Of a stretch of DNA of 64,000 nt, positions 11,401-49,480 are shown piece by piece. Under the pieces are notes generated by a model. That model had not been told where the DNA came from, did no database searches, and was given only the letters and a program-made list of their open reading frames with translations. Numbering within the stretch: the stretch's first letter is position 1; the number at the start of each line of letters is the position of its first letter. The DNA is from Azolla caroliniana (lineage: Eukaryota > Plantae > Polypodiophyta), in contig JBHGNT010000002.1 in assembly GCA_043228905.1 (NCBI GenBank), forward strand, positions 9,982,001 through 10,046,000, read 5' to 3'. The position numbers were made by a program, and so were the translations under genes.

Positions 11401-12434
11401 AACAAGCTCCACGCCAATGGTACAAGAAGTTCAAGTCCTTCATGATGGAACACCAATTCCAGAAAACATAGGCCGATCAATGTGTGTTTGTCAAAAGGTA
11501 CGAAGAAGGAGACTTCTTGATGCTCTTGTAATATGCTGATGACATGTTGATAGTTGAACAAGACACAAAAAGGATCGGAAGCTTGAAGAAAGCCCTAAGC
11601 AGGTCGTTTGCCATGAAAGACCTTGGACCGGCTGAACTGATCTTAGGAATGTACATAGTTCGAGACAGAACTCAAAAGGTGCTATGGTTGTCACAACCAA
11701 AGTATGTGACGAAGATCCTAGAAAGATTCAACATGTCGGACGCAAAGCCGTCGGCTCGGTGTTGCTGACAAATTGCAGGTTGAATGCAAAGCAGTGCCCG
11801 AAAGGGGAGAAGGAAAAGGTTGAGATGAGGATGGTACCATATGCCTCGGCCGTCAGCAGTTTAATGTATGCTATGGTCTGCATGAGACCAGACATAGCAT
11901 TTGTTGTGGGAGCATTAAGCCGATATATGAGTAATCCAGGAAGAGAACATTGGGCAGTGGTGAAGTGGATACTCAAGTACCTAAAAGGCACCTCAAGGGT
12001 GTGTCTAGGGTATGGTGTCAAAAAACTTGTGCTGGGAGGTTTTACTGACTCAGATATATCGGGAGGTGTAGACTCAAGTCGATCCACATCAGGGTACGTG
12101 ATGACCTATGGAGGGGGAGCAGTGTCGTGGCAATCACGACTGCAGAAGTTTGTAGCCTTGTTGACTACATGCAGAGTATATGGCAGCGGTAGAGGCCAAC
12201 AAAGAGCTGATCTGCATGAGAAATTTTCTCCACGAGCTAGGGATGAAGCAGAGGGAGTTCTTGCTTTACTGTGACAGCCAGAGTGCCATACATCTTGCCA
12301 AGAATGCTGCATATCACTCCCGGACCAAGCACATACAGAGAAGGTATCACTGGTTGCACGAGAAGGTCAAAGAAGGAGAGTTCACACTTGTGAAGATCCA
12401 CGCGGATAACAATGGATCCGACATGCTCACGAAG
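8422..12434 (+). pseudogene. Copia B gag-pol, many premature stops
   Basis: NYADWKIKMEDLL, WHKRLGHMSEKG, FIDDYSR, RTDNGGEY, YKARIVV, HSRTKHI..SDMLTK. The tail resumes at 18065. Confidence 0.92.
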
Positions 12435-13206
12435 TGATGGAAAATGAATCGACACTTTCCAAACTTCACCTCTCGGCCACAACCAAGGAAACACACGAAT
12501 CGTTGTTGCAGAAAAATGGGAAATGCGAAAAATAGAATGGACACACGATTTAACGTGGAAAACCCTGTACGGGAAAAACCACGGGAGTACAAGACTCCGA
12601 ACCAAAACTATGCACAGAGAAATATACAATGGCGAGCTGCAAGGCGACGACCTTGAGGTCGCTGTCCTCGCCACAGGCGGCGGAAATACACAGAGGCGTC
12701 GACCTCTTCCTCTCTCACACTCTATCTCTCTCGCGGCTACTCTCTCTTCACTCCTCTTGAGTGGAAAAAACAGAGAAATGATAAGCAACAACATTTAAAC
12801 TGTTTGCCCTAAGTCATATTTATACACATATGACTTTCAGGCTATTTACAAATATAGCCTCAAGGGCTCTTGGCAAACATATTCACAAATATGTCCCCGC
12901 ATCCGGATCTCTCTCCGGGTACATTCGTCATCCGGCTCCGTAATCGGGGTCTTCAGCATCCGGTTCCGTAACCGGGGTCTTCATCATCCGGCTCCGTAAC
13001 CGGGGTCTTCATCATCCGGCTCCGTAGCCGGGGTATTCATCATCCGGCTCCGTAACCGGGGTCTTCATCATCCGGCTCCGTAACCGGGGTCTTCATCATC
13101 CGGCTCCGTAGCCGGGGTCTTCATCATCCGGCTCCGTAGCCGGGGTATTCATCATCCGATTCCCGGATATCCGACAATCCCATCCGGAGGGACCGTAATC
13201 CCAACA
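12435..13206 (-). repeat. Copia C 3' LTR
   Basis: Direct repeat of 17288-18059, adjacent to the PPT. Confidence 0.97.
12928..13158. repeat. 28-bp tandem repeat x8 in U3 (second copy 17781-18011)
   Basis: Unit TCATCCGGCTCCGTA(A/G)CCGGGGT(C/A)TTCA. Confidence 0.95.
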
Positions 13207-13216
13207 AACTCCCCCT

Positions 13217-16200: not shown

Positions 16201-17257
16201 ATGTACCTTCATTTCCCATCCGGACACAGCCGTGCTCACCGACTGTGTAGGATGAGAAGTATTTCTTCTCCGGGGTCAGGTGGAACGACGCTCCGGAATC
16301 GACCACCCAGGTCATCTCTTCACCGGCAAGGTTCAGCTCCCTCTCTTCGGTAATGAGCATTATCTCTTCTTCACTTGCCGCGAGTGCCGTCGTTCCTTTC
16401 CGGTCCTGCCCTCGCCGATCCGGACCTCTCCGGTCCGTGGCTCCCCGGTATGCACCGTTTCTCTCCGGTGACTTCTTCGAATCGGTGTCGTCGGCTCCGT
16501 TGTCCTTTCGGTAATGCCGACAATTCTTCCGGAAGTGCCCCGGCTTCCCACAGTGGAAGCATGTGGGCCTTCCTCTTGACTGCGACCGGGTCCCCGACTT
16601 CTCCCGTCTTTGCGGACTCCGGTTCCATTGTCTTCCCCGATCCGATTCGGTAAGCAGCAACTTCGGATCGGAAACCGGTTCTTTATCTCTCCGACGCGCT
16701 TCTTCGTTCAAAATACTTGTCTTTACCGTTTGTAGGGACAAGTTATCTTCCGTGCAGGAGGTGCTAAGAGTCACCACCAAGTTCTCCCAGCTTTCCGGCA
16801 ATGTACACATCAGGATGATGGCTTGCATTGCATCCTCCAACGGGAACTTGATCGCCGCAAGCTGGTTCACGAATCCCATGAACGTGCTTACGTGTTCCAC
16901 CATACTCTCGCCATCCCGGTACTTGAGGTTCACTATCTTCCTCATCAGGGAGGTCCGGTTCAACGCATTCTTCCTCTCGTAGAGGCCCGACAGCTTCCGC
17001 CACATCTCATATGCGTTGGTGTCGTTCGCCACATGTTGTAGAATGCTCACGTCGACGTATTGCCGAATGGTTGCAACGGCTTTCCGGTTCAGAAGCCTCC
17101 ATTCCGACTCAAGTACCCCCTTCGGTATTTCCGACCTGTCAATCGGTTCGTACAGGTCCCGAACAATCAGAAGATCCTCCATCTTGATCTTCCAGTCAGC
17201 GTAATTCTGCGCATTCAGCACCATCATCCCCGGCTGCCCGCTGCCGCCGCCTTCCAT
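13217..17257 (-). CDS. Copia C Gag-Pol polyprotein (about 1346 aa; Gag, PR, INT, RT, RNase H)
   Basis: Uninterrupted ORF from MEGGGSG with CFHCGKPGHFRKNC, WVVDSGASFH, HHCC/DDE integrase, LYVDDML and RNase H STTEAEY. The frame is also open 130 codons further upstream. Confidence 0.93.
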   Translation of the reverse strand: MEGGGSGQPGMMVLNAQNYADWKIKMEDLLIVRDLYEPIDRSEIPKGVLESEWRLLNRKAVATIRQYVDVSILQHVANDTNAYEMWRKLSGLYERKNALNRTSLMRKIVNLKYRDGESMVEHVSTFMGFVNQLAAIKFPLEDAMQAIILMCTLPESWENLVVTLSTSCTEDNLSLQTVKTSILNEEARRRDKEPVSDPKLLLTESDRGRQWNRSPQRREKSGTRSQSRGRPTCFHCGKPGHFRKNCRHYRKDNGADDTDSKKSPERNGAYRGATDRRGPDRRGQDRKGTTALAASEEEIMLITEERELNLAGEEMTWVVDSGASFHLTPEKKYFSSYTVGEHGCVRMGNEGTCRIAGIGDVWLMTSTGCKMLLKDVRHVPEVRLNLISAGRLDDEGYTGSIRNGVMKFSKGSLIVARARKVNTLYLMNAWLCPEELNVAADAAGELWHKRLCHMSEKGMKRLAEDNLIPVKHVHLEKCTDCLAGKQNRTSFHSRPPTRRSAPLELVHTDVCQVETKSHGGAQYFVTFIDDHSRKLWTAPLKTKDQVLSVFKELHARVERESGKKLKAIRADNGGEYRGQFAEYCRLKGIRLEFTVPKTPELNGLAERMNRTIMERVRSMLAHAKLPKGFWAEAMSTATYVINRSPSVPLDGDTPQKVWTGKEVSYRHLKVFRCLAYVHVAKDRRGKLDPKTRPCIFLGYGDDEFGYRVWDPVDKKIFRSRDIVFMEDKTLADWESEKKMKSSKSTGEDQLYEEQSRPARDRLALEDPAEDGEETEPAEEDENDTGTGPEPEMDSDEEESEEPVTEAPERRFPEPEHVLLTDEGEPESFEEAKHDTQSRRWLSAMQDEMDSLHENHTYELVELPKGKRALRNKWVFKLKPGDAGNPPRYKARIVVKGFQQKKGVDFDEIFAPVVKMTSIRTVLSIAASMDLEVEQMDVKTAFLHGDLEEEIYMQQPEGFEKKGKEHLVCRLKKSLYGLKQAPRQWYRKFDSFMTDEGYLKTQSDHCVFVKKFEGGDFLILLLYVDDMLIVRRDQVKIRMLKKALHRTFSMKDLGPARQILGMHIIRDRSKKQLWLSQEKYVTKVLKRFNMSEARPVGSTLPANCKLSNKQSPKTKAEKEDMMKVLYASAVGSLMYAMVCTRPDIGYAVGVVSRYMSNPGKEHWNAVKWILRYLKGTANVCLRFGSGKPELDGFTDSDMSADADTSRSTSGYVMTYAGGAVSWQSRLQKTVALSTTEAEYMAAVEAGKEIIWMKDFIRELSIRQEEYRLYYDSQSAIHLAKNAAYHSRTKHIQRRYHWIRERIEDKEFMLTKIHTDENGSDMLTKVLTPDKLEACRKRIGLERHPMPK

Positions 17258-17287
17258 TTTCTGCAGCAGCCCGCTCTGATACCAAAT

Positions 17288-18059
17288 TGATGGAAAATGA
17301 ATCGACACTTTCCAAACTTCACCTCTCGGCCACAACCAAGGAAACACACGAATCGTTGTTGCAGAAAAATGGGAAATGCGAAAAATAGAATGGACACACG
17401 ATTTAACGTGGAAAACCCTGTACGGGAAAAACCACGGGAGTACAAGACTCCGAACCAAAACTATGCACAGAGAAATATACAATGGCGAGCTGCAAGGCGA
17501 CGACCTTGAGGTCGCTGTCCTCGCCACAGGCGGCGGAAATACACAGAGGCGTCGACCTCTTCCTCTCTCACACTCTATCTCTCTCGCGGCTACTCTCTCT
17601 TCACTCCTCTTGAGTGGAAAAAACAGAGAAATGATAAGCAACAACATTTAAACTGTTTGCCCTAAGTCATATTTATACACATATGACTTTCAGGCTATTT
17701 ACAAATATAGCCTCAAGGGCTCTTGGCAAACATATTCACAAATATGTCCCCGCATCCGGATCTCTCTCCGGGTACATTCGTCATCCGGCTCCGTAATCGG
17801 GGTCTTCAGCATCCGGTTCCGTAACCGGGGTCTTCATCATCCGGCTCCGTAACCGGGGTCTTCATCATCCGGCTCCGTAGCCGGGGTATTCATCATCCGG
17901 CTCCGTAACCGGGGTCTTCATCATCCGGCTCCGTAACCGGGGTCTTCATCATCCGGCTCCGTAGCCGGGGTCTTCATCATCCGGCTCCGTAGCCGGGGTA
18001 TTCATCATCCGATTCCCGGATATCCGACCATCCCATCCGGAGGGACCGTAATCCCAACA
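17288..18059 (-). repeat. Copia C 5' LTR
   Basis: Adjacent to the PBS; TATAAATA on the minus strand at about 17670-17677. Confidence 0.97.
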
Positions 18060-29563: not shown

Positions 29564-31659
29564 GTGAGAAATCCACCATGATCGGGTTATTGAAAGAATT
29601 CAAGGACGTTTTCGTATGGTCATACGAAGATATGAGGAGACTGGACCCGAAATTATACCAGCCCAAATCCACCTAAACAAGGACGCCAAACCGGTAGCCC
29701 GGCGACACTACCGGATGAATCTGAATTATGTGCTAAAGGTGAAGGAGGAAATCGATAAATTGTTGCGCATCAGGTTCATCCGGCTGGTAAATCAAGCCAC
29801 GTGGCTCAGTCCAATCATCGTAGTGCCCAAGAAAAATGGGAAATTTTGGGTGTGCGTAGATTACCAAAAGTTGAATGTGGCCACGGTCACATATGCATTC
29901 CCGCTATCGTTTACAAATGGAGTACTGGATGCGATAGCAGAACACAAGGTATATAAGTTCCTAGACGGATTCAGTTGGTACAATCAGATCTTGATGCATC
30001 TGAGACCAAGAGAAGACACCATTTGTTATGGAATGGGGAGTATTTGTGGCTGTAGTAATGATGTTTGGACTCAAGACTGCACCCGCAATATTCCAGCGGA
30101 TCATAATGTAAATCTTTGGCGAATACATTCCGGCCTTTATGCCGTATACAGCTAGAAGGAGGACCACTTAGACCATCTCCGCTTGTGTCTTGAAAAATGC
30201 CAGGGATCCCGATTAGGTTTGAATCCAGCTAAGTGTGCATTTGGGATCACGAATGGAGCGTTGTTAGGGCACATTGTAAGTAAAGAACCGCGGTAGATCC
30301 GGATAAGGTTAAAGCAATCCTGCAAGCACTGGCACCAACAAATGCGAAGGTCTTGAGTCGATTCCTGGGTCGGATCCAATGGCATAGCCGGATGCTCTGA
30401 TACTTGGCTGATTTCGCTACTCCACTACACGCAACAATGCAAAGATTACCCTTCCAGTGGACGGAGCACGAGGATAAAGCATACCATGCGCTTAAAGTCA
30501 TGCTCTCACAAGCTCCAGGGGTACAACCACCAGACTGGTCTAGAGATTTTCACGTATTTGTGGATGCTTTGGATGTCGCAATCTAAACTGTATTAATGCA
30601 ACTGATAGAGCCGAAGTGGTACCGGCCGGTGTATTATGCGAACCGGAAACTCTCCAAAGCCAAATGAAACTATTCAACAATGGAAAGAGAAGCTCTTAGA
30701 ATGGTATATAGTGTCACAAAGTACCAACACTATTTGTTGTGCCGAAAATTTGCATTCCATGTTGACTACTCCGCATTGGTTTACCTGGTGTCGAAAGCAT
30801 CACTTACCGGAAAACTAGCTAGGTGGACCTTACTATTGCAGGAGTTCGAATTTGATATATACCATTGACCTGGAGTGCAACATGTGGTGGCTGATTACAT
30901 GAGCTAGCTAGAATTCGATGAACGCCGACGATGGCGTCCGCAACGAATTTCCGGACGCAAAGCTATTTAAAATTATCGAGGCAGTAGTAGATGAATCGGT
31001 CACCGGCGAGGATAAGTGGATGACAGATATGCATCAATTCTGGAGTGCTAGACTACCATTGGAAGAGCTGAGCTAGGACAAGCAAAAATGTCTAGCAGTA
31101 CAAAGCCGGCATTTTCGTCTTGTCATGCACACGTTGTACCACAAGGGAGCGGGCGGAGTATGGTGACGGGTAGTTTGATGCGATGAGAAGGACGCAGTAT
31201 TATGCAAGGCACACTTTGGAGTCGCCTGTGGACACTATGCCGGAGACGCAACAACCCGGAAAATATGGTGGCCAACCACCCTTAAGGACTCAATACGGTA
31301 TTCTAAGGAGTGTGATTTGTGCCAACGGATGGAGCAACCAATGGAGTAGGCACAAATGCCACATCAACCGGTGCTACAGTTGGAACCTTTCTAGAAATGG
31401 GGGTTGGATTTTGTCAGGCCGTTCAAGCTACCGAGAACTGGTACATTATTGTAGCCACGGATTATTGTAGAAAGTGGGTGGAATCAAAGGCGCTCCGGGA
31501 CAACACCGCGGCATCCACGACGAAGCTATTGTATGAGTACATTTAGTGCCGGTATGGCTATCCGATCGAGCTCATAGGCGACTAACGCGGACACTTCATA
31601 GGACAAGTAGTGGAGACTCTAACGACATTCTATGTAGTGGTCCATAAGAGAAGCACGCC

Positions 31660-32046
31660 TGTTGAGAGACAAGCTCAACATCGGCCAGATTGGCCGAAGA
31701 AGCCGAGGACCGGATCGGTTGGGACCGATCGGTTAGGCCGAGTACATAAACCGGGAGGTCGTTAGGAAAGATATTCCGTGATGAATATATTTGGGAGTTA
31801 GTGTAGGGCTCTTAATGAGCATTGAAGTACTGTCAGTACTTCGGTCAGTCCTTCTAGGGCTTGTATAAAAGTGTTCACTGAGCACGTCTTATGTACAGAC
31901 TGAGCACTATTATTGAATATAGTATTTTTTGTGTTTCTCTCTCTGTCTCTCCTGTGTACACCGTGTAAGCTCAAGCTCTCCATTAAACCTGAGTTTCCTC
32001 CCTTCTGTTCGGTCTTCATACTAGCATCTGCACGTTTCTTTTTACA
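31660..32046 (+). mobile_element. Copia solo LTR (387 bp), TSD ACGCC
   Basis: TGTTGAGAGAC...TTTACA; ACGCC at 31655-31659 and 32047-32051; TATAAAA at about 31864. Confidence 0.92.
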
Positions 32047-33182
32047 ACGCCGTACTACCCGCAAGCGAATGGACTAGCAAAATCAACGAACAAAACGCTT
32101 CAGATTATCTTACAGAAGATTGGGAACATGAACCGGACGGACTAGGATATGAAGTTGCACAGTGCGTTGTGGGCATACTGGACAACATACAAAACGAGCA
32201 TCCCGTCAACACTGTTTCGACTGGCATTCAGACTTGAAGTGGTAATGCCAATGGAGTTCCAGATAGCAATTTGCGGATATAGGTATGGGAATGGTTGAGC
32301 GAGAAAGAATCGGAATGGATCCAGTTGGAAACGTTGTGTGAGATGGAAGAACACCAGATATCAAGCTTGATGCAATTAGAGCTAGAGCAGCATCGACGGA
32401 AAGCATTTGTGGACCGACATCGGAAAGGGAACGAGAAGGAATTCGGAATCGGGAAACCGGTGTTGGTATTTTAGACCCGGATGGGAAGCATGCCAGGGAT
32501 GCTCAAGTTCCGATGGACCAAACCATACTAGATAATGTGTGAGTTTAAAGGATCCTATCAGCTCGGAACATTGGTCGGAGAGCTACTCGAGAAATGGGTA
32601 AATCGATTCCGGCTTAAACCTTACACAGGACTGATGCTAGAAAACCCATTCAGGGAACTAGAGGAGCACGACGACCAACCAACCAGAGAGAAGGTTACCG
32701 GAAGATCCTCGATGGCACAGGAGCCGGTAAAGCAGAAAGTCTCACAGGCCTCAACGGCACTCGGTACGGGAGGATAGTTTACGTCGCACCTGAAGGAAAT
32801 AATAGTAGTAGTAGTAGTAGTAATAATAATAATAATAAACGTAATCATAACAATAGTAGTATGATGAAAAAAAGAAAAAAAAGAAAAGAAAGAGATATTC
32901 CAGATATTGAACGGTCATAATGAAAAGGTGAATGGAAGCGGTGTGACGTCAGCCACATTTAAGGAGCACCAAGTGGCACAATCATACCATAATGATACAC
33001 GACGTGCATGCGTGGGAATCAAGAATGGGCACCTGAGAAAGATGGGTATACAAAATTTCCGAAGAAACGAGGGAGTCTCATTTCGCGAAAGAAAGATCTT
33101 CAGAGCACAAACTGCACAGGCTTCTAGAAAAGCACTGGCACTCAACCTCCAGAGCGAGCTCGACACAGAAAATACAGAAGCC

Positions 33183-34486
33183 ATGGCGCTCTCAAACGAA
33201 GCAAAGAACTGGCTCATCAAGAACGGCCTCGAAGGTTTCATCCGGGTAGCCGAGGCACCACCACATGAATAACCGGAGGTGGTCGCGACAACAATTGATG
33301 TGGACAGAATCTCCGAAGTAATGGTGCAAGCAGCGATAGAACTACCTTCCGGAGGAATGCACTCAATCGAGAACCCCTCCACTCAAATACTGACAGGATA
33401 TTTTGGGGAGTTCTCAATCGTGAGCAAGGCATATCGGACAAAGGGTGGCGAAAACCCCCTATTTCGGGAAGTGGCTCAGGTGTTGCTTGAGTATGGATTT
33501 GTTCATCCCCGACCACTCGTCATGCCCAAGAACAAGGTTGGTTTCATTATCGCAACATTCGAAGGCTTAAGGGTGGACTGACCCTTAATCGTGGCGGATT
33601 CACTCCAGATGGCGATTTCAGTTGTAGTCAACGAGAAGAAAGCATGGGTCGGAGTAGCACAATGGCTTAATGTGCTAGTACCCCCGATGCACTAAAGAAA
33701 CGGGCACGATAGGAGACCACGCCAAACAAACCATCCAAACGGCAACAACTCCTAGCTAAACAGACCCCTGGATGGACAGTAGGGACATCCTAGCAAGCAA
33801 ACCAGTTCCGGAGCCGCGGAGAGAAGAGCCGGTGAAAGCGGCAAAACCCATTAAAATAAAGCTACGAAGACATGGCAGGTAACAGACGGAACAAACAAGG
33901 ATGGCACACCAGAAACCGAGGATGAGGAGAACCTAGAAGATGAAGGGGAACCCCTCCAGAGACATCCTAAAAAACAGGAAAGGGGGCAGCATGGGGAAGG
34001 ATCGGGTCTGCAGAAGGATAATATGCCGACTCCCAGCTCAACAGTGGTGGAGCCAAGATCAGAGCCGCAGAAAAAAGGAAGGCCAGAAGCGGTGGACAGG
34101 GTTCTGCATGAACCAGGGCAAGAACATACTACACAGACACAACTGTAGGAGGACGCACAAAGATCGACGTTGGACTAGGAGATGGAAGAGACAGCTAGAC
34201 AGAACTTCGGGGAGGAGCAAGGGCGGATGCCAGAAGCAGTACAACAGTTCATTGTGCTCACACAAAACGGAACTTGCCGACAATGGTTGGAGTGGCTAGG
34301 CAAGCAGGTTGCTAGTGTGGTTGACCGAATGGATGTACAATAAAGATGGGATCCATAGCAGGCAGAATGGTTACTTGGAGCAACTGAAGAGTTAGAAAAG
34401 GCCCGCAATTAGATCCGGAGGTTAGAGGAGAAGTTGGCTAGGACCAAGGAATTAGCGGCCATTATGGCAAACATTATCCAAAGGGG
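33183..34486 (+). pseudogene. Additional sense ORF downstream of pol (element E copy), function unknown
   Basis: MALSNEAKNWLIKNGLEGFIRVAEAPPHE..GGENPLFREVAQVLLEYGFVHPRP; homologous to the copy starting at 42086. Confidence 0.8.
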
Positions 34487-34874
34487 TGTTAGGATATGCA
34501 TGTTATCCGACTATTTCCGAATACCTTCCGGATTACTCAATACGTCTCCGATTAATTATAACACACATAAGGTTAACGATTAAAGCACAGAATGGCAAGC
34601 ACACAATAGGAACAATAGCATTAAGATCAACGCACTAATCTTGTATTACTTTCGTTAGATTTATCATCAATCCAGACCCTTTTATAGGCGTCCAGTAGAG
34701 CTTACAAAACGGTGCCTTACCAGCTACCGGCAATAAATATGTGCAGATCCGGATCGGTACAACTATCCAGATCCGTCCGTTCCTATAAAATTACTTAACT
34801 ACGACATACTAATAATTATACTCCGACTCATCCTCATTCATATTACTCCTCTAGGACATACTCCTCGGCCAACA
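34487..34874 (-). mobile_element. Solo LTR related to the Gypsy F LTR, flanks unmatched
   Basis: Reverse complement TGTTGGCCGAGGAGTATG..ATAGTTGTACCGATCCGGATC resembles 35695 onward. Flanks are AGGGG and AACGT. Confidence 0.85.
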
Positions 34875-36180
34875 AACGTGAGCATTGGAGGAAGTCGTTA
34901 CTTTGTAACCTTCATCGATGACTACACTCAGCACACTTGGGTGTGCTTGATCGAAAAGAAGAGCGAAGTCTTCTTCTGTTTCCTGAAGGTGAAGAGCCTT
35001 GCTAAACGGGAAACCGGCAGAAAATTCAAGTGCCTAAGGTCCGATGGCGGAAAGGAGTACTTTTCCGACCAGTTCTCGAGTTTTCTACAGAAGGAAGGAT
35101 TTCGGTGAGAATTCTCTTGCAGATACACACCGGAGCATAATGGTGTGGCCGAGCGGAAGAATCGGACCATACAGGAGGTAGCACGGGCAATGCTTGAGGA
35201 GAAGCATATGTCAAACTTTTACTGGGCTGAAGCGGTTCAGACAGCCGTCTACCTACAGAATCGGACAAATGCAAATGGACGAGTGTCGCCACATGAGTTG
35301 TATTTCGAGAAGAAGCCAAACTTGGCACACTTGAGGGTTCGATAGCATAGCATATGTCCATGTGTCGAAGGAGAAACGAAGGAACCTAGACGCGAAAGCC
35401 GAGAAGTGCATTCTCGTGGGCTACTCAGATGAGCAAAAGGGTTATACGTGTTATAACCCCCGAACGAAAGAGGTCCGAGTAAGCCGAGATGTCGTTTTCG
35501 ACAAGTCGGTGTCATGGTACTTGCCCTCATCTCCAACCCTCAACAACTCCATTCCTATCTTTGAGGACAACGTCAATGAGGCTGAAATGCCTCCAGAAGA
35601 AGAAGGAATTAGAGCTCAAGAAGAGAGTATGATCTCATTCCGGCTAAGTGGACCGAATGAGTGACTGAGTCAGATCAACTTGTCAGATGAGGAGTGTTGG
35701 CCAGAGTATGGTCTGGAGGACAAATATGGAAAGGAAGGAGTCAGAGTTGAATATTATATTTAGAGAAATAATTAGTTAGAAATATTATAGGAACGAGCGG
35801 ATCTAGAATAGTTGTACCGATCCGGATCCGGACCGATTCATAGTTGGTAGCCGATAAGGCACCATTTTGTATTCCCAACTGGAGGCCTATAAAAGGATGG
35901 GAATCAATGTAATAGCTAGCAGAAGTAATACAAGTTGGAGTTTTCATTTAAGAGCATTGTGTTCCTTGTCTACTTGCCATTTTGTGCTTTCATTCTCTAT
36001 CTTACGCGTGTTCTAATTAAACGGTTGCTCATTACCCCAAACCGGAACGTATCCGGAATCAGTCAGATTAGAATCGGATCGGTGTCGGATAACATCATTC
36101 CCATAAATACCTCTTTGGTGAAGTGTTCTGGAAGGACACCTTGTGTTTGTGGCTAGTCCAGCCCAGGATAAACATAGTTT

Positions 36181-36193
36181 TGGTGACCACAAT
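36181..36193 (+). promoter_or_regulatory. PBS, probably tRNA-Arg(UCG)
   Basis: TGGTGACCACAAT versus the expected TGGCGACCACAGT (recalled tRNA sequence; two transitions), 6 nt after the LTR. Confidence 0.6.
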
Positions 36194-36211
36194 TCCTACA
36201 AGGTGCAACGA

Positions 36212-39200
36212 ATGACGGGGAATGGATGACTAGACCGACCAACAACCCAGTCACCGAATGAGCAAGAATACTAGCCGAGAGACTACGGAGGGGGGAGGCC
36301 TACGAGTAGGCGGCCAAGGAGATCCAACAAGATCGGTCTTTTCACATAGATATTCGGCAAGTCACGGAGGAGACAATCTAGTCACAAAACCAACAACATT
36401 CAGACGAAGGCAGTAGTCTCAGCAGTTTACACGACATAGAATTGATACTGCAAACCCTAGCCACGAGCTTCGGGGACTCAGAAACATTTTCCACATTTGA
36501 GTCAAAGTCGAATGACGAACACAACGTCCTTTCAAACTACCAAAGCAGTCACGACACTCCGAACAAACCAGAGGACGACGGTTCAGAGCACACACTGACA
36601 CCATAATCGGAAACGACGTTACCAATATTGCCGGAAAACAAGAGGAATCCGGACCAACAAACCAAGAGGACGGGCAATCGAGTACCAACACCACCAGTGG
36701 ACCGACAATCGGAAGAGAAGAACGACCGTGTACCGACGCCACCACCGGACCGGCAATCAGAGAAAAAGGACAATCGGGTACCAACACCACCCCCGGAACA
36801 ACCTTTAGACGAAGACACCATGCCGTACATGTACCCAAAATACCGGGACAACCCAGATGCAGAGGCACATGTCTATGCCTTCTTACAGACATGGGAAGGT
36901 AACCATGTCTCGCAACGACTGATAGAAGCAGAGGCTGAGCGTTCAAAAATCGCGGAGTTCAGAATGACCAACAACGAAGTGGAATGCAAAGCATCTTCCC
37001 AATAGGTTTTCTACGTTGGATGCCCTAAAGGAAAAAAAAATTCTACTGTTTCACAGATAGGTGGAACAAAGGGAGTTAGTCGGACAATTTTACACGACCA
37101 AGAGGAGGATCTGCGATTCCGCCAACCAGTGCAATGCACCACGTGCCTCAACCTCAAACACTCCACGTTAGAATGCACAATGCGGACTCAGTGCATATTG
37201 TGCCACTCCCAGTCACACACTATAGACCGGTGTGAGTACAATTTGTTAAATCGGCAAGCGGCACCGGTCCAACATATTGAGCGTCGAAGTGAGCTACGAC
37301 TAGACAAGGATCCAGTGGATGAACGTTACCACCCGGAACATGGTGATCGGTATGAGGACAGAAGAAGAGACGCCTACGACCAGGATCGCTATGAGCGCGA
37401 TTACTCCCCGGATTATAACCAGCGAAGGGATGATAGAAGGTACCCGAAATGGCGAGCCTACCAAGACCAAGACAAACGAAACCCGGAATGCCAAGGGTAC
37501 CGCAATCACCGACGCAATTAGAACCGTAGGGGCAATTTTCGCCGAGATGAGCGTCGTGAACAGGCCCGGGAATACCATCGGGAACCGGATATAAACATGG
37601 CCACTATCCCACAACCAAAGCAACGGAGACCGGAAGATAGCAATCGGATGAATCCCGGTATCCAACCTAGAAAAAAGGGAATCAAGAAATATCCAAAAAG
37701 TGTACTGCTACTATTGTCAGAAGGAAGGCCATTATAGCACCTAGTGCCTAGTCACGTCTAATGTGAAACAGCCGACAGTGAACATGGTGACCGCAAAAGT
37801 CATGGATGTATAGCAAGTCACCACCCGATCGAAAGGGAAAGCTGCAAAGTGGGAGACCCAAGAGGCAATCTGAAAGCAGGTTACCGAGTGGATATAGAAG
37901 GCCAATGAACGGAATGTGGCCGAAGTAAAAGAACAGTCCAAGTTTCCAGCGGAACCACTCGAGACCACAGATGACGACCCAACCTGGCAAGCGTTGCAAC
38001 AATGCCAGATTATGTTGCCTCTAGGCCGCCTATTACAATTGGTTCCTCATTTACAGTAGGCCTTAAATTGGCATTACCACCACAGAATCCAGAGCCGGCA
38101 CCAACATTCTTTTCCAATCCAGAGGACGGACCGGTCGTAGTGGACACAAGTAGTCTAGCAATCACGATGATAATCAAAGGAAGCGAGATACTCAGAACCA
38201 TTATTGACGGAGGTTCCGGTGTAAATGTAATCAAGCAACGAAGTAGGGATCAACAAATGGGAGTCGTGCTCATTTTGGCTACGAATGGCAAACACTAGTT
38301 CGGCCCGGCCAACCGGACTCATCCAGGACCTCGACATTACAATCGAAGGCCAAGCGTTCTGAATCTCCGCAATGGTACTGCAACTCAACGCACTAGGGCT
38401 TACCCCCTATTATTAGGACGACCATGGTTGCTTACGGCGCATATTAAGCAAACTTGGCAAAAGAACGTGATTACCTTCCAACGAGGGAAAACTAAGGTGC
38501 GGGTGTCGACACAACAACGGGTTGGTACAACTAAGCAGCTAACGCCACAATACACAGAGAGTATTAACATGCTGGATGGATTCTCAGATGACGAAGTCGA
38601 CCGATATCTAGAGGAACACCCCAAGATTGTGTCGTTATTTGAAGTAGATGTAGTCGAAGCCGTCACGTCATACGTCACGCACCAGGAGGATGAATTGGAC
38701 GAGCCGGATCAGGAGGCAGTTCGGGAACTACGATAGGCACAAGAATCACTGGAGAGGGAAACGGCAGTATCCGAAAGAGTAAAGGTATCGAAGGTAGAAG
38801 AAGTCAACCTCGGGACACGGGAGGCACCGAGACCAGTAAATGTGGCAAAGGAAATGCCACCGAAATAGAAAACGGCAATGGTGGAGCTACTCAAAGAATT
38901 CCAGGATGTTTTTGCATGGTCATATGAGGATATGTGAGGGTTGGACCCCCAGTTGTACCAACATCAGATCCATCTGAGTAAGGATGCAAAGCCGGTAGCG
39001 CAACAACATTACTGAATGAACCCAAATTACGTAGCAAAAGGAAAGGAAGAAATTGATATGATGCTAAGAGTCGGTTTTATCCAACCAATAAAACAAGCCA
39101 TGTGGTTGAGCCTGATAGTTATTGCACCAAAAAAGAACAGAAAAATTCGGGTTTGTGTCGACTATCGAAAGCTGAATGCGGCCACGTTGACTCACGCTTT

Positions 39201-41640
39201 TCCTCAACCATTCACAGACGGGGTATTAGACACGGTCACCAGTCACAAAGTGTACAGTTTCTTGGACGGATTCATCGGATAATATCAAATTCGGATGCAC
39301 CCAGCGAACCAGGAAAAGACGGCGTTCGTCATGGAGTGAGGAGTGTTTGTCGTAGTGGTCATGATGTTTTGACTAAAAACAGCATCGGCGACGTTTCAAA
39401 TAATCATAATGGAGATATTTGGAGAATACATCTCGACTTTTATGCAAGTATTTTTGGACGATTTTGCAGTCTATAGATGACAGGAAGATCATTTGAACCA
39501 TCTCTGGATGTGTTTGGAAAAGTGTCGGGGATCCTGACTAAGCCTCAATCCGGCAAAATGTGTTTTTGGGGTAACAAGCGGGGCACTACTCGGACACATC
39601 GTCAACAAGGATGGAATTATTGTAGACCCGGAAAAGGTAAAAGCAATCTTGCAACCACCAATGCCAACCAACGCCAAAGCATTGAACCAGTTCTTAGGAC
39701 AGATCCGGTGGCACAACCGAACGCTTTGATACCTAGCAGACTTCGCAACTCCATTACATGCAGTTGTGCACTACATACCCTTTCAATGGACGGAGCAAGA
39801 AGAGAAAGCGTATCATGCATTGAAAGTGATGCTGTCACAAGCTACGGTAGTGCAACCTCCTGATTGGACGAAAGATTTTCATGTGTTCGTTGATGCGTCA
39901 AACATAGCAATCGGGAGTGTCCTCATGCAGTTTACCAAACCAAAGTGGTACCATCCGATATATTACGCGAGCCAGAAACTCTCAAAAGTTGAACGGAATT
40001 ACTCCACAACAGAAAGAGAAGCTCTAGGGATGGTATATAGCGTCACAAAGTACTGCCACTATCTGTTAGGGGGCGAGTTTTCATTCCATGTAGACCACTT
40101 GGCACTAATCTATTTGGTATCCAAGGCATCATTAACCAATCAGGTCGCGAGATGGACACTCCTACTACAAGCGTTCAAAGTTGAGATCTACCACCGACCG
40201 GGAGTATAGTATAGCATGCGGTGGCCGACTACTTGAGCCGGCTAGAATCTGGCGAAGCAAGGGACGGAGTCCGACATGAGTTTCCCGATGCCGAGCTATT
40301 CAAGGTTATTGCGGAGATGGTTGTAGATGAGACAGTGGCTGGAGAAGATAAGTGGTTCACCGACATGCACTAGTTCCTGAGTACCGGATTACCTCCGGAA
40401 GAACTCAGCCAGCATGAACGGAAACGCCCTGTTGTCCAAAGCCGACACTTTTGTTTAGTGCAGGATACAGTGTACCATAAGGGAGCTAACGGTATTTGGC
40501 GATGTGCGGTGCGGAGTGACGAGAAAGAAGCAATCTTACGAGAGGCGCATCGCGGCGTTGCTGGCAGGCACTATGCCGGAGATGCCACCACCCGGAAACT
40601 TTGGCGAAGTGGGTTATGGTGACCGACAACCCTCATGGACGTGGTTTGGTATTGTAAAGAGTGCAATCTATGCCAACAATTGGGCCAACCAACGAAGCAG
40701 GCTTAGATGCCCCATCAACCAGTGTTGCCATTGGAACCTTTCTAAAAGTGGGGGTTAGACTTTGTGGGACCATTTACATCGCCAACAATGTGTACGGGGA
40801 ACCGGTATATCATAGTGGCCACCAACTATTATACAAAATGGGTGGAAGCAAAAGCGCTCCAGGACAACACCGCGACGTCAACAGCTAAGTTTCTATACAA
40901 GTACATATGGTGCCGGTACAGGTGCCCGATTGAGCTGATTAACGACCATGAAGGAAATTTCCTCGGCCACGTGGTGGAAAGCCTAACTTCCTTCTATGTA
41001 GTAGTGCATAAATGCAGCATGCCATACTACCCGCAGGCAAACGGATTGGTGGAGTCAACAAATAAGACGCTCCAAAACATCCTCCGGAAGATTGTAAATA
41101 AGAACCCGACGAATTGGGACACCAAACTACACAGCGCGATATGGGCATATAGGACGGTGTATAAAACGAGTATCCAGACAACATTGTTCCGGTTGGTATT
41201 CGAACTAGAGGCGGTAATGCCCATGGAGTTTCAGATCCCCAGTTTACGGATTCAGGTTCGGAAGCGATTGAGTGAGAAGGAATCCGAAATAATCTGGTTG
41301 GCAACATTATGTGAATTAGAGGAACAATGGATAACTAGTGTGTTGCAATTAGAGCTCAAGCAACGAAGATGGAAAGCTTTTGTGGATCGGCACAGGAAAG
41401 GCAATGAGAAGAACTTCAGCATAGGCAAGCCAGTATTGGTATTCCAGACCCGGATGGGCAGTGTTCTGGACCTGATCATTCTGGATTACAAGGGAGTTCA
41501 AAGGGTCTTACCAACTCGGAACACTAGCCAGCGAGGTACTGGACAAATGGATCAACGGGTTCCGTATAAAGCTGTATAAAGGACCGATGCCGGAGAACCC
41601 TTTTAAGGAACTGGAGGAACGGCAGGAAACCGGAGGAGAA
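36212..41640 (+). pseudogene. Gypsy F gag-pol, degenerate
   Basis: Knuckles CTTCLNLKHSTLEC, CILCHSQSHTIDRC and CYYCQKEGHY; protease IIDGGSGVN; RT VDYRKLN and FLDDF; RH VFVDAS; INT YYPQANGLVES. Confidence 0.9.
36670..36800 (+). repeat. 48-bp in-frame repeat x about 3 in gag (RVPTPP.DRQSE.K)
   Basis: Peptide repeat visible in ORF 36628..37005. Confidence 0.85.
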
Positions 41641-42085
41641 GCAGTAGCTGGGGAAAGTCTGATGACAACGGAGCCGGTACAATTGGGTACAACGGAGACC
41701 TAACGACGCTTGGTACAGCGCAGTACCTTATGTCGTACATTTTTCAAAAAAAAGAAAGATATCATGCAGAGGCCAGGAGCAAAAGGATATGATGAAAAGT
41801 GGCATGCGGGGAGATATCATTCGCAATTTTAAACGAACACAATGAAAAGGTGTGACATCGGCCATTTAAAGCGCACCACGTGCCATACTTTACTATTATG
41901 GTACACGACGTGCATGCATGGGAATAAAGAAGAATACGTAGTGGCTGCGAATATGAGTTTCATATGGCAAGCACAAGATCTTGAGAGCACAACAGAGCAC
42001 TTAGGCTTCTAGATGAGCACATGCCATCAATAGAACCCAAGCACCCACTCGCAGCAACGAAGTCGACGAAGAGTTTACAAAACTG

Positions 42086-44950
42086 ATGGCACTTTCGACC
42101 GCCACCAGAGATTGGCTCAGCAAGAAAGGCCTTGAAGGATTCATCCGGGTAGCTGATGCCCCACCACACGAAGAACCAGAGAAGGTCTCAACAATGATCA
42201 ACCTCGACGAAATCTCTGAAGGCATAGTGTAGGCGCTCATCGGGTTACCTGCCGAAGGCCTATGCTGCATTGAAAACCCCTCCACAGAAATCTTGACCGA
42301 CTAATTTGGGGAGTACTCTATAGCAAGAAAAGTTTACCGGACATAGGGAGGTGAGAATCCCCTATTCCGGGAAGTAGCTCGTGTCTTATTAGAGTATGGA
42401 TTTGTGCACCCTCGACCACTGGCCATGCTGAGAACATGGACGAATTTATCATTGCAACATTCGAAAGGCTCAAGGTGAACTAGCCGGTGATTGTGGCCTA
42501 CTCGTTATGGGCAGGAATAGCGTTCGTAATGGATGGGAAGAAAGCATGGGGCGGATTAGCACAATGGCTAACAATATTGGTACCCCCAACATGCGTCATC
42601 AAGCCAAAGAAGCGAGCCCGGTCGGAAATCACACCCAACAAGTCCTCCAAATGGGAGCAACTCCTAGCAAAACACACCCCCAGATGGAAAGCAAGAGACT
42701 CGTCTCGACAGGAAGAAGAAGCGTTGGTGAACCGGAGGCAGGAACCTGTGGAGAAAGTTCCGAAAAAGACGGTGAAACCAATCAAGATAAAGCTGCGACG
42801 GCATGATAGAGACTAGGAGCAAGGTTGTTAGGTACGTTAGGTACAGTACAGATACCATACGTATATAACGTATTAATACGCATATAGTACCTCCCAATTT
42901 AAAAATACGTTAAATATGTTTTCTTAATATGTTAAATACTTATAAAATACGTATTTTACATATAGTACGTTACATACTTCTACAATTTGAAAATTATTTA
43001 CCTTTCTAGAAAATATCTCTAATATTGTAAAATACATCTATGTTTACACAATTTTGTGATGTACAATATAGTTCTACATCCTAAAATGCATATAAGACAT
43101 TTGAACATTTCATATCCTAAAATACTTGCAGTAATATGGATGTCGACATTCCCTTATTCTATAAATCAATGTAAGTGTGTATCACGATGTTCTATTTCAA
43201 ATTGTAATTATTTACAATTATGCCTTCATAGATTGAGGAATCGTCTACGATTATCACACTCATGATAGGTTTCTCTTTTCTTCGTTTTCTTCTTCTTCTT
43301 CTTCTTCTTCTTCTTCTTCTTCTTCTTCTTCTATCTTCTGCAATCATCACACTTAGAGTCATGACAGGTTTATGTCTTCTTTTCTCTCTTCTTCTTCTTC
43401 ATCTTCTTCATCGTCGTCTCTTCTATTCTTCTTCCTTCCTTCCTTTGGCTTCTTTTTCACTAAAATCTTTTTTTTTCTTTTGGTTTTTGTTGGGGTTTTA
43501 CTTACATTTTCTTTATAAATATGTATTATACCTATTTTTTTATAAATACGTTAAATACCGTATTGGACAAATGTACATGATATTTGACTGAACAACATTG
43601 AGGTATAGTACGTACTATACAAATGATGAGGGACTATATGTATTTAAACGTTAAATACGGGTACTTAAACAACCATGACTAGGAGCAACTGGTACAAATG
43701 GTAAACCAAGAAACCGCGGAAGAGGAACCTGTCGAAACCCTCCAGTGAAGCTCACGGAAGCGCGATAGTGAGCAGCAAGGGGAAGGATTGGGTCCGGAGA
43801 AGGACAATACACCGATTCCCCGCTCAACGGTGTTGGAACCCATACTAGAAACGGAGCCAGCTAACATATCAGAAGCGGTGAAGACGGTTCAAACTGAACT
43901 AGAATTAGAGAGACATACATCACCGGGTCTTTTAATGCAGCAACAAGAAGAACGCCAGCCAAAGCAGACACTACAGCAAGAAGAGTTGTTTGCACAATGG
44001 CTCAAGGAGGATGACGAACTGCGACCGGAGCCAGTGCAGCAGTTCGTTGCACTCACACAACATGGAACCTGCATACAATGGTTAGAATGGCTTGGCAAGC
44101 AAGTATCCGGTGTGGCTAACGGGATGGATGACGAACAACGGGTGGAGCGGAGACAAGTGGAACGGTTGCCAACAACAACTGAAGAATTGGAAAAAGCCCA
44201 AAATCAGATTCGGAGCCTAGAGGAGGAGTTGGCAAGGGCTAAGGAGTTCGGGGTCCTTATGTCAAAGATGGGCCAAAGCACAAGCTCTGGAACAGAGCCG
44301 GTAGAACCGGCTAATCTACAAAAGGAAGCTCTGGAAACGAATGCCCAAGTAGAGGCCAACACAACCCTGGTAAAAGACGTTGAGCGGGAATAGGAAATGC
44401 TAACAATAAGGGAGGAATTAGCCACTCAAGAAGCATTGAGAGAAAGAGAAAAAGTGCAGAAGAAGACAACTGAAGAAGAGAAATGGAGAGTTGAAGAAAA
44501 TCCCTGAAAAAGTCAAGCAAACAATGATCAGTTGAAGGAGGAAAGAGAAAAGTTGTTGTAGGAAAAAGACAAGCTCCGGAGGATGGCCGAAGCAGAGAAA
44601 AGAGCAGCGGCAATAAACATCAACGATGAGGAATAGTCTACGGAACCACAACCACAATCGCAGTCGGAAGAGTAGTTGAACCAATAGCCGAATGAAGTCG
44701 GAGTGGAGCTGGTACGAAACAAACGGAAGAAGCTGAGACGGAATAGCTAGAGCAAGTTGGAAATGGAGAGAATGTGGGAGCCAAAGCAGGACAAGAACAT
44801 CATTAGCCGGAAGGGGTCAGAGAACAGCAGCAGCAACAAAGTGAAGAACCGCTCGAACCCTTGGATCAGAGCATTTTGGACATACTTGATGAGGAGTGAT
44901 GGAGCTAACCCGTGGGTTCGACATGCAATGCACTGTCCCACGAGTGTGCC
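42086..44950 (+). pseudogene. Additional sense ORF of Gypsy F (split by a hAT MITE), with acidic and coiled-coil-like C-terminus
   Basis: MALSTATRDWLSKKGLEGFIRVADAPPHEE..; KPKKRAR; PIKIKLRR; EELEKAQNQIRSLEEELARAKE. Confidence 0.78.
42820..43677 (+). mobile_element. Non-autonomous hAT element (MITE, 858 bp), 8-bp TSD ACTAGGAG
   Basis: TIRs CAAGGTTGTT / AACAACCATG; TSD at 42812-42819 and 43678-43685; subterminal TACGT motifs; internal (CTT)n. Confidence 0.9.
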
Positions 44951-45270
44951 ATGTGTTGGCCAAAGTATGGTCCGAAGGACAAATGTGGAAAGGGATGAGT
45001 CAGAATTGAATATTATATCTAGAGAAATAATTAGTTAGAAATATTATAGGAACAGGTGGATCCGGAATAGTTGTACCAATCCGAATTTGGACCGATTCAT
45101 AGCCGGTAGCCGGTAAGGCACCATTTTGTATTCTCAACCGAAGGCCTATAAAAGGATCCGGGAATGAATGTAATAGCTAGCAGAAGTAATACAAGTTGGA
45201 GTTTTGATTTAAGAGCATTGTGTTCCTTGTCTACTTGCCGTTCTATGCTTTCATTCTCTATCTTACACGT

Positions 45271-46421
45271 TGTCGTGAAGATCCGTCACTACGCGCGGAT
45301 CGTGAGGCGGAACCGTCGGGGTTCTGGACCGGAAGGATTCAAAGTCGGTACAAGCTTTGGCGCAAGCTTTAGCGAGAAAGTACTTAAGATAGATTGGGAA
45401 AGAGAGAAGTTGAGATCACACGATTGAGAGAGATTGATTGAACTTTTAACTTTAGATTTAAGAAACAAGTTACACGATCAATTTGATAACGAATTTCTTC
45501 CTCTTAATTTTCATAAAAAAACGTCTTTTTTTTCTCCTCCCCCTTCCTTCTTTTATAGATGCTCTCATGCATATGATGCATGTGAGGGTACAAGACATGC
45601 ATAAATTGCATGTTTGCCATTTGGCGCTTATGTATTACATGTGGTGCATGATAACCATGTCACTCATTTTAGCTCTCATGTATGAGAATTTACATGTAGA
45701 AGTACAATGATAGAAATATAATTTCACCTAAATAGCATGGCTTAATGGTAAGCCAATTGACTCCTAACTTGGAGGTGCAAGGTTCGAATCCTTACTTGCC
45801 CTCCTTGTATATGTATATATGTATATATATTTATATATTTATTTATCTAGTCGCCGGTTCGTCGAATGCCGTCGGTTACCGATGCCATCGCCGGTTGCCG
45901 CCGGATGCTGTCGTCTCACCAACGCCGGATACCGGTGCCGCCGGAAACCGGTGCTGCCGTCGGTTACCGGTGCCCCGCCGGATGCCGTCGTCGGATACCG
46001 GTTTGCCGCCGGATCACCGGCTCCATCGCCGGTCCGGTTTTGGTTGGCCAAAACCCTTTACGGGTAGCTAGCCCACCTCCACTCTTAGTTCAAGTTACCT
46101 TGAACTCTCTATGCTCCACACATAGACACAAAGATAATATCTTTTGCTCTACCTTATGTATGATGAGAGCCGTATTTGTCGTGTCTATGTGGGATATCTC
46201 ACAATTTTCTCTTTTCCTTTCACAAACTTTATACCCTCATATCTTGACATTTAGTTGTTCGTTTCTCGTGTAATAAAGTGCATTCGAAACCTCCATCATT
46301 TTGTACTTAGATATTAAATTTATTTAAAATGTTATCTTCACAATTATTGTATTATGTGATTCATACTCGATTTCGTACGTTTTATGGGATTTTCACACTA
46401 TTGCCGAAAATCTTCACGACA
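45271..46421 (-). mobile_element. Solo LTR X (1151 bp) of the TGTCGTGA/Trp lineage, 4-bp TSD ACGT
   Basis: TGTCGTGAAGA...TCTTCACGACA; ACGT at 45267-45270 and 46422-46425; U5 motif shared with 27185-27245. Confidence 0.82.
45731..45802 (+). other. tRNA-derived Pol III cassette (A box and B box) inside solo LTR X
   Basis: TGGCTTAATGG at 45738-45748, D-like stem GGCTT/AAGCC, loop CTCCTAA, GGTTCGAATCC at 45781-45791. The acceptor stem does not pair. Confidence 0.65.
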
Positions 46422-46425
46422 ACGT

Positions 46426-47070
46426 TGTCGTGATGTGGTGTGTTTAATGCGAGAAAAAGTGAAAATTTGAGGATACATGCACATTACACAAATACTTGTA
46501 AAAATGAAAATAATAATAAATAAACCTAGGACATGATGGTACTAAGTGCATATTGAGGGTTGCAAGTAAGATTTGAACCTTTCACGTCTAAGATAAGAAA
46601 CAATTATCATACCTCTAAAGCTACTACTACATGCTTTACATTTTGTATATTTTCTTTTCATATTCAGTATTTCATAGGTAGCAAATAGGCAAAAACCGTA
46701 TACACAAAACCATGGTTTTAAGCCCATGGTTTTGTGCATGTCATAAGCAAAACCGTGTCCACAAAACCATGGTTTTGTGCATGTCACAAGCATGGAGAGA
46801 CCTATAAAAGCCTCTAGTTGGGCTTGTGTATAGGGGGGGGCTCAATATGTGATATCACCAACACCACAACATCAATATAATTATATTCATCTTTATCTTC
46901 TTCATATTTTTCTACTTCTCAAGTGTACAATCTTTCTTCTTCTCAAGTGAACAAATTTCATCCAATCTTACATTGATCATCATCTCTTCGATAATTCCGC
47001 GAACGTCCTCCCTAGTCCAAGACCCCGGTGGTTGCTTGAGTAACACACGCACGCACGAATCTTCGCGACA
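46426..47070 (+). mobile_element. Solo LTR Y (645 bp), same lineage, flanks ACGT/TCGT
   Basis: TGTCGTGATG...TCTTCGCGACA; TATAAAA at 46803; GTCCAAGACCCCGGTGGT matches the Trp-Gypsy U5. Confidence 0.8.
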
Positions 47071-49480
47071 TCGTGTTCTAATTAAACGGTTGCTCATTAC
47101 CCCAATCCGGAACGTATCCGGAATCAATCGGATTAGAATCAGATTGATGTCGAATAACATAATTCCCCTAACCACCCGTTTGGTGAAGTGTTCGAAAGGA
47201 CACCTTGCGTTTGTGGCTAATCCAACCCAGGATAAACAAGGAGATGGCGAGTAGTGGAGACTCAGTCATGCACTCCCTACACAAGGAACCGAGGAGACGG
47301 TTCACATGTAGAGAGAAAGGGCAAAAGAAGATGCTAGAATACGACATCAAGAGGGAAGAGTCAGATCGGAGCGAATCCGACTCCGGAAAGCATGAAGACG
47401 GACCTCCGAAGAAGAGGTCGGAGTCGGCCAAAAGGGCCATCAAATCGGCAGAGTAGAAATTGCGTTGATCTACCTACCAGAAGCACCCCGTAGTTCGATA
47501 CAGATACGAGTATATAGCGCATCACTATGCGTACATGACAAAGGTGACAGAAGTGCGTGAGCCGGAGAGCGACGCGGAAGCGGCAAAAGACACAAATTGA
47601 CGTGTCGCAATGGAGGAAGAGATGCACGCGCTCATGGAGAATGAAACATGGGACCTGGTTGATGCACCGAAGGGTGCATAAGCGACCGAATGTTGGTGGG
47701 TGTACAAGATCAAGTACAATGCCGATGGCTCCATCAACCCGTACAAAGTCTGGTTAGTGGCAAAAGGCTACGTGCAACAACACGACATCGACTACAATGA
47801 GACATTCGTGCCGGTTGCGAAGATGACGACCGTCTGTGTCCTGCTCACAGTAGCTATAGCAAAGGGGTGGCACTTACATCAAATGGATGTCAAGAATGTG
47901 TTCTTGCAAGGTGAGCTTGAGGAACAGGTATATATGGTACAGCCCCCCAAATTTCAGTCCGGAATGAACACGTCGGTTGTTTGCCTACTGAAGAAGTCCT
48001 TCTACAGACTCAAGCAAGCCTCGCGGGCCTAGAACGCAAAGATCACGTAGCGACTGCATCGGATGGGGTTTGCCACTTCGAAGTCGAACTCTTCACTTTT
48101 GATCCATCGGGGTCAGAACGGGTCGGTTAGTTGATGATTTAGTCATCGCCGATGCCGACCAAGAAGAAATCGGCTGCGTCAAGTTCTAGCTAGCGGAGCG
48201 GCATCATTGGACATGAAGGATTTGGGGGGCCTTCATTACTTCCTCGGGATCGAAGTGATGCGCACCCCGGAAGGCATATTGATCAACTAGCAACATTATG
48301 TGTTGAGTATGCTCTTCAAGTTTAGAATGACAGAGTGCAAATCCGTCTCAACTCCTTTGTATAGGAATATGGAGCTTCACCCCGACTCCTAAATGGCATG
48401 CGATCCAAAATGGTTCTGATAGATAGTCGAAATCCTTATATATTTGACCATCACGTGGACGAACCTCAGCTATTCGGTCGGCCTGATTAGTCAATTCATG
48501 GCACATCCGATTGTAGAGCACCTTCAGTGTGTGCAACGAATACTTAGGTATGTCAACGGCACCAAGGACCAGGGGTTGCTATATCGGCTTGGAAACGTCG
48601 GACAGTTAGTCAGCTATACGGATGCCGATTGGGAAGGAAATTCCGGCGACCATAGGCCTACATCCGGATATGCGTTTTCACTTGGATGCGCCACGATCAC
48701 TTGGAGCTGCAAGAAGCAACCAACAATTGCTCCGTCGAGCACCAAGGAGAGGCTATCGTGACATGCAAAGCCATATGGCTCAAGAGGCCATTGAAGGATC
48801 TACAGATGGAGGTGTTTGATCTGACAACGATCTACTGTGACAACCTCAGCGTCATCCAACTTGCGAAGAACCCGTCTTCCACACCCAGACCAAGCACATT
48901 GAGGTGCACTATTCCACGAGCGAGTCCTTTCCGGTGAAGTCGAACTGGTGTATGTTCTAACGAATCGGTAGACTACCAATATCTTCACTGAACCCCTTGG
49001 CCTGGACAAGTTGCGGCAATTCTCGAGTATGTTTGGTCTCCAATACCTCGATACCCCGAACTTGATGGGGAGAGATAGAGTCAAAAAGGAAGATGATGTC
49101 CGGGAAGCCGAATTGGATGACAAATCTGATTTCGGACAGACTAAAGAAGTCGGAATGTTCGAATCGGCTGGAGAAGCTGAGGATGAATGGACATGCGTAG
49201 GAGGATTGGAAAAGTGGAGACTAGTCAAACGAGAGCTGGAACCGGATCCAACCGAGCCAAGGGATGGAAAAACCAAGAAGAGCAAGAGAGGTAGCGAAGG
49301 CCAAGACCAAGACATGGGCAGATGTGGTCAAGGGCCTGAAGGAGGACAAATCAAAGACAACCAATTCCGACAAGAGTTGGAATGAATCGGAGTCAGCCGA
49401 TTCGGAAGAGGTGTTCGATTTGGAGGAGCCGAATCAACTGAAGGCCAAACGGACGAGAAGGCAGCAGAGGAAGGAACAAA

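Follow-up and report, generated by a model that had tools for sequence, protein, structure and literature searches.

What the extra genes behind pol do for plant Gypsy retrotransposons is an old question (PMC7264820, PMC6317226). Much of the ground around it is already in print: extra open reading frames (ORFs) at this position, the domain known as Athila/Transposase_32, and the link in fold between VANC and the plant mobile domain (PMD). VANC21 binds a short motif in the non-coding parts of its own transposon and causes demethylation (PMC5735166). VANC, described as dicot-specific (PMC13547354), has the same fold as the chromatin proteins of the PMD/MAIN group; coiled coils are predicted to mediate the oligomerisation of VANC and, separately, of the Athila domain (PMC13547354; bioRxiv 2024.04.02.587720, 2024.09.27.615353). 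Here we describe an extra gene of this kind in Azolla caroliniana, taken from a window of 64,000 nucleotides (contig JBHGNT010000002.1, positions 9,982,001 to 10,046,000 of the forward strand), to which all positions below refer. The window holds two decayed Ty3/Gypsy copies, A and B, whose extra genes start at 33183 and 42086. This gene of about 970 codons is kept under purifying selection in a large group of plant retrotransposons. Structure prediction gives its first domain a fold like that of Athila ORF1 and of the DNA-binding anti-silencing protein VANC21, and for that reason the gene likely helps the elements escape host silencing.

A first-pass annotation had read the two copies as homologous genes with many third-position differences, and had expected purifying selection. 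Both copies are present, with the quoted peptides in their translations and the four quoted codon runs at 33444, 42347, 33501 and 42404. Their alignment of 155 codons has 30 differences at first, 26 at second and 81 at third positions, and the ratio of nonsynonymous to synonymous divergence (dN/dS) is 0.135 (dN 0.203, dS 1.51, bootstrap confidence interval 0.07-0.22). The shifted sense frames gave 1.69 and 1.23 as controls, and the 0.21 of the mirror antisense frame is what such a frame is expected to give. Over 49 copies the median is 0.18 in 1009 pairs (each with at least 100 codons and a finite dS above 0.05), one pair reaching 1. These ratios are rough, dS being near saturation (median 1.6); less diverged pairs agree, at 0.11 (dS 0.77) and 0.17 (dS 0.28). 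The two copies in the window are pseudogenes, a point absent from the first-pass annotation, and the selection signal is therefore a record of the active lineages ancestral to them. The proposed start at 33183 is supported, since the in-frame codons upstream are unconstrained as protein: dN/dS there is 0.54-1.9 in the six pairs with finite dS, against 0.07-0.17 over residues 1-170 in five of the six, the sixth being saturated in that region. An upstream in-frame methionine (33042) is ruled out as the true start by the same lack of constraint.

The gene is abundant in the 523-Mb host genome, where two first-look counts gave 4576 and 4894 candidates. Among 30 long loci, 23 show the gene and a related integrase on one strand and within 3 kb of each other, mostly 1.0-1.3 kb apart. 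A second family bears the gene at the same place, with 37-40% identity in the domain and reverse transcriptases (RTs) that are 75-81% identical. Where a locus has both parts (20 of 30), the integrase and domain trees show an identical two-family split, and the domain diverges about five times faster than integrase. Ten second-family loci (L073-L092 in our numbering) are young, with long terminal repeats (LTRs) 96-98% identical, no AGTTGTMC motif, and a primer binding site (PBS) for tRNA-Arg(UCU). Protein searches found 307 representative homologues at E <= 0.001; among the matches listed, the rows had neither a Pfam domain nor an informative name. Relatives were confirmed on 108 metagenome contigs, 80 of which were fetched, with an integrase upstream in 13 of the 20 that had room for one; none of 37 pattern matches in viral contigs was confirmed. 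Two read sets presumed to be RNA, a guess as to their nature, yielded six partial contigs less than 90% alike in one and none in the other, which speaks neither for nor against expression.

Of 53 copies, 46 have a TATA-like box upstream of the gene at a near-fixed distance, which is -200 to -300 for family 1 and -376 to -396 for family 2, against a chance rate of 2-7% per 500 nt. This suggests that the gene has an internal promoter of its own, an arrangement reported for gene23 of maize Grande (PMC7264820).

The carriers are non-chromovirus Ty3/Gypsy elements, with the order gag-protease-RT-RNase H-integrase and no chromodomain. Open copies match Retrotrans_gag, zf-CCHC, a protease (weakly), RVT_1, RT_RNaseH and rve in Pfam, and nothing past integrase. 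The copies scanned have one RNase H only, with none before gag or after integrase, and so lack the additional RNase H (aRH) that defines Tat (TatI-III, Ogre and Retand in REXdb). Nor do they have the combination that marks Phygy: a 4-bp NCGN target duplication, a tRNA-Trp PBS and no extra ORF. With Athila they share the missing aRH, the sense 3' extra ORF and a 5-bp target site duplication (TSD), found in eight family-1 elements (six exact, two with one mismatch) and in copy B. Athila's dominant PBS (tRNA-Asp/Asn/Ala) is replaced by one for tRNA-Arg, with the anticodon UCG in family 1 and UCU in family 2.

These elements have no polypurine tract. In its place stands the 3' end of tRNA-Arg(UCU), copied in sense orientation and carrying a 4-bp hairpin in its T-loop; the copy ends in CCA, with exactly 2 nt between it and the 3' LTR (window 44912-44951; L031-L042, L074-L092 and other loci). 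This mimic has 1962 exact matches in the genome against none for a reversed control; 58 instances fall into three covarying stem types and are 46% purine. It likely marks tRNA-type plus-strand priming, and a literature search on a tRNA mimic at this position found nothing relevant.

The protein opens with a 170-residue domain, followed by a linker that is basic and rich in proline and by a stretch of about 400 charged residues in which helix breakers are few. Next comes a conserved block, for which the model shows two long helices, and last an acidic tail. The model of the N-terminal domain from an open copy has a predicted local distance difference test score of 92.7. The C-terminal block (residues 641-850) was modelled with a predicted template-modelling (TM) score of 0.31 and gave no fold match. 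Residues 851-967 are 35% acidic. The last 17 residues, with the pattern LE..(E/D)QS(I/V)LDILEE, follow an acidic linker that varies; they are conserved in both families (L031:7684-7734; window 44849-44899) and resemble a short docking helix.

What family does the first domain belong to? The first-pass annotation had named a confident hit to an already characterised retroelement ORF family as grounds for dropping its reading, and that came about by half. At the level of sequence no hit appeared: Pfam scans of the ORF, of both domains and of 80 alignment rows gave chance-level matches only, the ATHILA ORF1 (PF03078) and Transposase_32 (PF20167) hidden Markov models found nothing above cut-off (0/12 and 0/80 alignment rows), and a PDB sequence search returned nothing under E 0.6. 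Genome searches with the PF20167, PF03078 and PF10536 profiles were blank, but so were their controls. DUF1985 (PF09331) was not among the matches listed (25 of 31 Pfam families), and the carrier is a retrotransposon rather than MuDR. By predicted structure, the domain joins Transposase_32 and ATHILA ORF1: the two TM scores are 0.71 (167 of 175 residues) and 0.70 (172 of 175), obtained model against model for one homologue; language-model feature similarity is 0.87-0.89. On these models it is therefore not a wholly new family, falling instead with named families that are functionally uncharacterised. Among solved structures the best match to the model was VANC21 of the VANDAL21 Mutator-like DNA transposons (PDB 9lnj/9lnk, chain residues 307-533). 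A search of the atlas that left out the two lead families gave no usable match.

Our preferred reading, which we place a little short of even, is that these abundant non-chromovirus Ty3/Gypsy elements carry an accessory gene for a putative nuclear protein, with a predicted helical domain of the Athila-ORF1/VANC type, that likely binds the element's own DNA to counter host silencing. The place behind pol, the selection, the copy abundance and the lack of a membrane helix are direct observations; the steps that follow are inferred. Transcription would start from the gene's own TATA-like promoter in the spacer between pol and the ORF. Basic motifs after the domain would bring the protein into the nucleus, where the 170-residue domain, through conserved basic residues K82, R85, R99, K116, R118 and K152, would bind DNA. 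The helical region of about 400 residues would serve oligomerisation, and the acidic tail, through the conserved helix at its end, may recruit a host chromatin or transcription factor, so that LTRs stay active in trans. The guess of an anti-silencing or chromatin role made in the first-pass annotation thus gains VANC21 as the one solved fold above background for the model. Tandem motif arrays, the hallmark of VANC targets, were not found in the non-coding parts of the three stretches scanned, which is the main result to set against our reading, even if binding without arrays would be compatible with it. A VANC6-type 8-mer also fails as an LTR target, its single copy in 15 of 40 family-1 LTRs and 0 of 17 family-2 LTRs being compatible with chance.

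Could the protein serve replication instead, binding element RNA or cDNA for packaging, importing the pre-integration complex into the nucleus, or tethering integration to a type of chromatin? Such functions have been proposed for extra ORFs (PMC7264820), there is no chromodomain to steer integration, and the basic motifs with the long predicted coiled coil would suit a scaffold. The closest solved fold, however, is that of a double-stranded-DNA-binding anti-silencing protein, and a separate promoter and divergence faster than that of integrase suit a regulator better; we regard a replication role as rather unlikely. A regulator could also be a plain trans-activator, one that binds an LTR motif and activates transcription by its acidic tail while DNA methylation stays unchanged. 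No repeat arrays would be needed for that, the acidic tail ends in a helix motif common to both families, and 12 of the 16 family-1 LTR clusters retain the palindromic 8-mer GATCCGGA. The palindrome may instead be a site for a host factor, and we consider a plain trans-activator improbable.

A role in helping the unusual second-strand priming of elements that have no polypurine tract strikes us as very unlikely. The gene and the tRNA mimic do occur together in both families and in 14 of the 18 metagenome contigs with room, which shared descent would explain, and the structural relatives of the domain sit in Athila elements, which have an ordinary polypurine tract. The position, sense and between pol and the 3' LTR, is that of env, and would fit an envelope-like or cell-to-cell movement protein. 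We give this scarcely any credence: the highest 19-residue hydropathy is 1.14-1.30 in seven of seven proteins, the Kyte-Doolittle 19-mer maximum (no dedicated predictor was used) thus showing neither a transmembrane helix nor a signal peptide in any of them, and a fold search of BFVD gave no viral match at E <= 0.001. The view of the first-pass annotation that the protein is not an envelope is supported.

In the window, all parts of both copies lie on the plus strand. Copy A begins with a broken, 5'-truncated pol (29567-32665; RT, RNase H and integrase) with 68-70% DNA identity to that of copy B; tblastn matched its RT at 29739-30287 and its integrase at 31149-31675. Neither a gag nor a 5' LTR of its own was seen within the window. 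Its TATA-like box (32955-32964, from a match scan) lies about 227 nt 5' of the extra gene. A near-palindromic TTTCGCGAAA-type motif (33078-33091), about 100 nt 5' of the start codon, recurs at equivalent places in other copies, and the untranslated leader that holds it shows low synonymous-type divergence in several pairs. The N-terminal domain (residues 1-170; 33183-33692) has 53% identity to an open copy and is broken by stops. Basic motifs, an acidic and proline-rich linker and the start of the helical region follow at 33693-34486 (from tblastn and translations), frameshifted and cut at 34486. In-frame stops stand at 33270, 33579 and 33693, besides frameshifts; by tblastn the copy spans residues 1-433 of a 967-residue open copy with 11 stops. 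It is terminated by an inverted LTR-like piece of a related element (34487-34874, minus strand), 71% identical to the reversed copy B LTR over 34505-34874.

The 5' LTR of copy B (TG...CA; 35695-36174), with the 5-bp TSD AGGAG just before it, is at a Kimura two-parameter distance of 0.10-0.11 from the 3' LTR. A decayed match to tRNA-Arg(UCG) at 36181-36192 is the PBS; in young copies the match is to the 3' terminus of the host's tRNA-Arg(UCG) genes. The broken gag-pol (36200-41618, start approximate) was identified by Pfam RT_RNaseH and rve and by tblastn with RT and integrase. A TATA-like box from the same scan (41862-41871) precedes the extra gene by about 223 nt. Aligned to an open copy, that gene (42086-44899) has stops at 42230, 42302 and 42344 and one frameshift, lacks a match for about residues 540-870, and retains the conserved acidic C-terminal helix. 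The insertion of about 870 bp that splits it (42810-43682) is an AT-rich element with short terminal inverted repeats, 91% identical to another at 55925-56763 in opposite orientation. The tRNA-Arg(UCU) mimic with its inserted hairpin (44912-44951) occupies the expected place of the polypurine tract and ends 2 nt before the 3' LTR. That LTR (44954-47238) is interrupted by a 1.8-kb insertion (45271-47071) and followed by the TSD AGGAG. Copy B as a whole is nested in a Copia element (34875-35694 and from 47239), whose rve and SH3 domains precede it. A very young Copia element lies at 12432-17988. Its polyprotein, on the minus strand, is open over 1476 codons, and its repeats are 100% identical over 300 nt and contain a 28-bp tandem array. 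A weak tblastn match at 15019-14717 falls inside a Copia polyprotein and was rejected as compositional.

It is possible, if on balance doubtful, that the Athila ORF1/Transposase_32 domain and its compact version outside flowering plants form a retrotransposon branch of the VANC/PMD fold. If so, sequence-specific anti-silencing would be an ancient invention of LTR retrotransposons, older than VANDALs, and the env-position genes of OTA elements, long without an explanation, would turn out to encode anti-silencing factors and no envelopes. Should binding to the element's own LTRs and lifting of methylation prove true, anti-silencing proteins would extend beyond the DNA transposons of dicots, the idea that VANC arose when host MAIN was captured (PMC13547354) would have to be revisited, and the diverged domain families would be natural tools for sequence-specific demethylation. 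A small, confidently modelled domain that ties an Athila-type ORF to the solved VANC21-DNA structure makes the old question directly testable. We found no paper that connects the Athila-type domain with the fold of VANC, though the VANC21 structure paper and the 2022 paper on VANC evolution may do so, and none describing an extra ORF of this kind in aRH-less elements.

How, then, does the gene compare with its described relatives? Maize Grande gene23 and the Retand ORFs are likewise accessory genes with their own promoter, nuclear in Grande and with an SMC-like coiled coil in some, but they are antisense and carry Transposase_28, whereas the gene here is sense (PMC7264820). The plant mobile domain (PF10536; MAIN/MAIL and the Ogre extra ORFs), reported as a structural relative of the VANC DUF1985 domain, includes PMD-A members encoded by retrotransposons; PF10536 is unmatched in our proteins, and the Ogre PMD ORFs are mostly antisense. 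The non-chromovirus elements reported from neither flowering plants nor Gnetophyta resemble our carriers in lacking an aRH, in their 5-bp TSD and in a tRNA-Arg PBS like that of TatIII and Ogre; a 3' extra ORF and loss of the polypurine tract are not described for them in the text consulted. VANC21, too, is the product of an accessory gene of a transposon and combines a conserved domain with variable linkers and a predicted coiled coil (PMC5735166). Identity to it is 8-9%, the domain here is shorter, its carrier is a retrotransposon instead of a DNA transposon, and the target arrays are missing from the stretches scanned. Close in arrangement are ATHILA ORF1 and Transposase_32, sense ORFs of OTA Ty3/Gypsy elements between pol and the 3' LTR, with a predicted nuclear signal in a sunflower Athila ORF that has PF20167 (PMC6317226, PMC11728184). 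Unlike these, the protein here has a compact 170-residue N-terminal domain followed by about 400 residues of helix and is matched by Pfam in 0 of 80 rows, and unlike Athila its carriers pair a tRNA-Arg rather than a tRNA-Asp PBS with the absence of a polypurine tract. The gene is real, selected and dead in this window, a distinct variant of a known general kind whose predicted fold points to an anti-silencing role.
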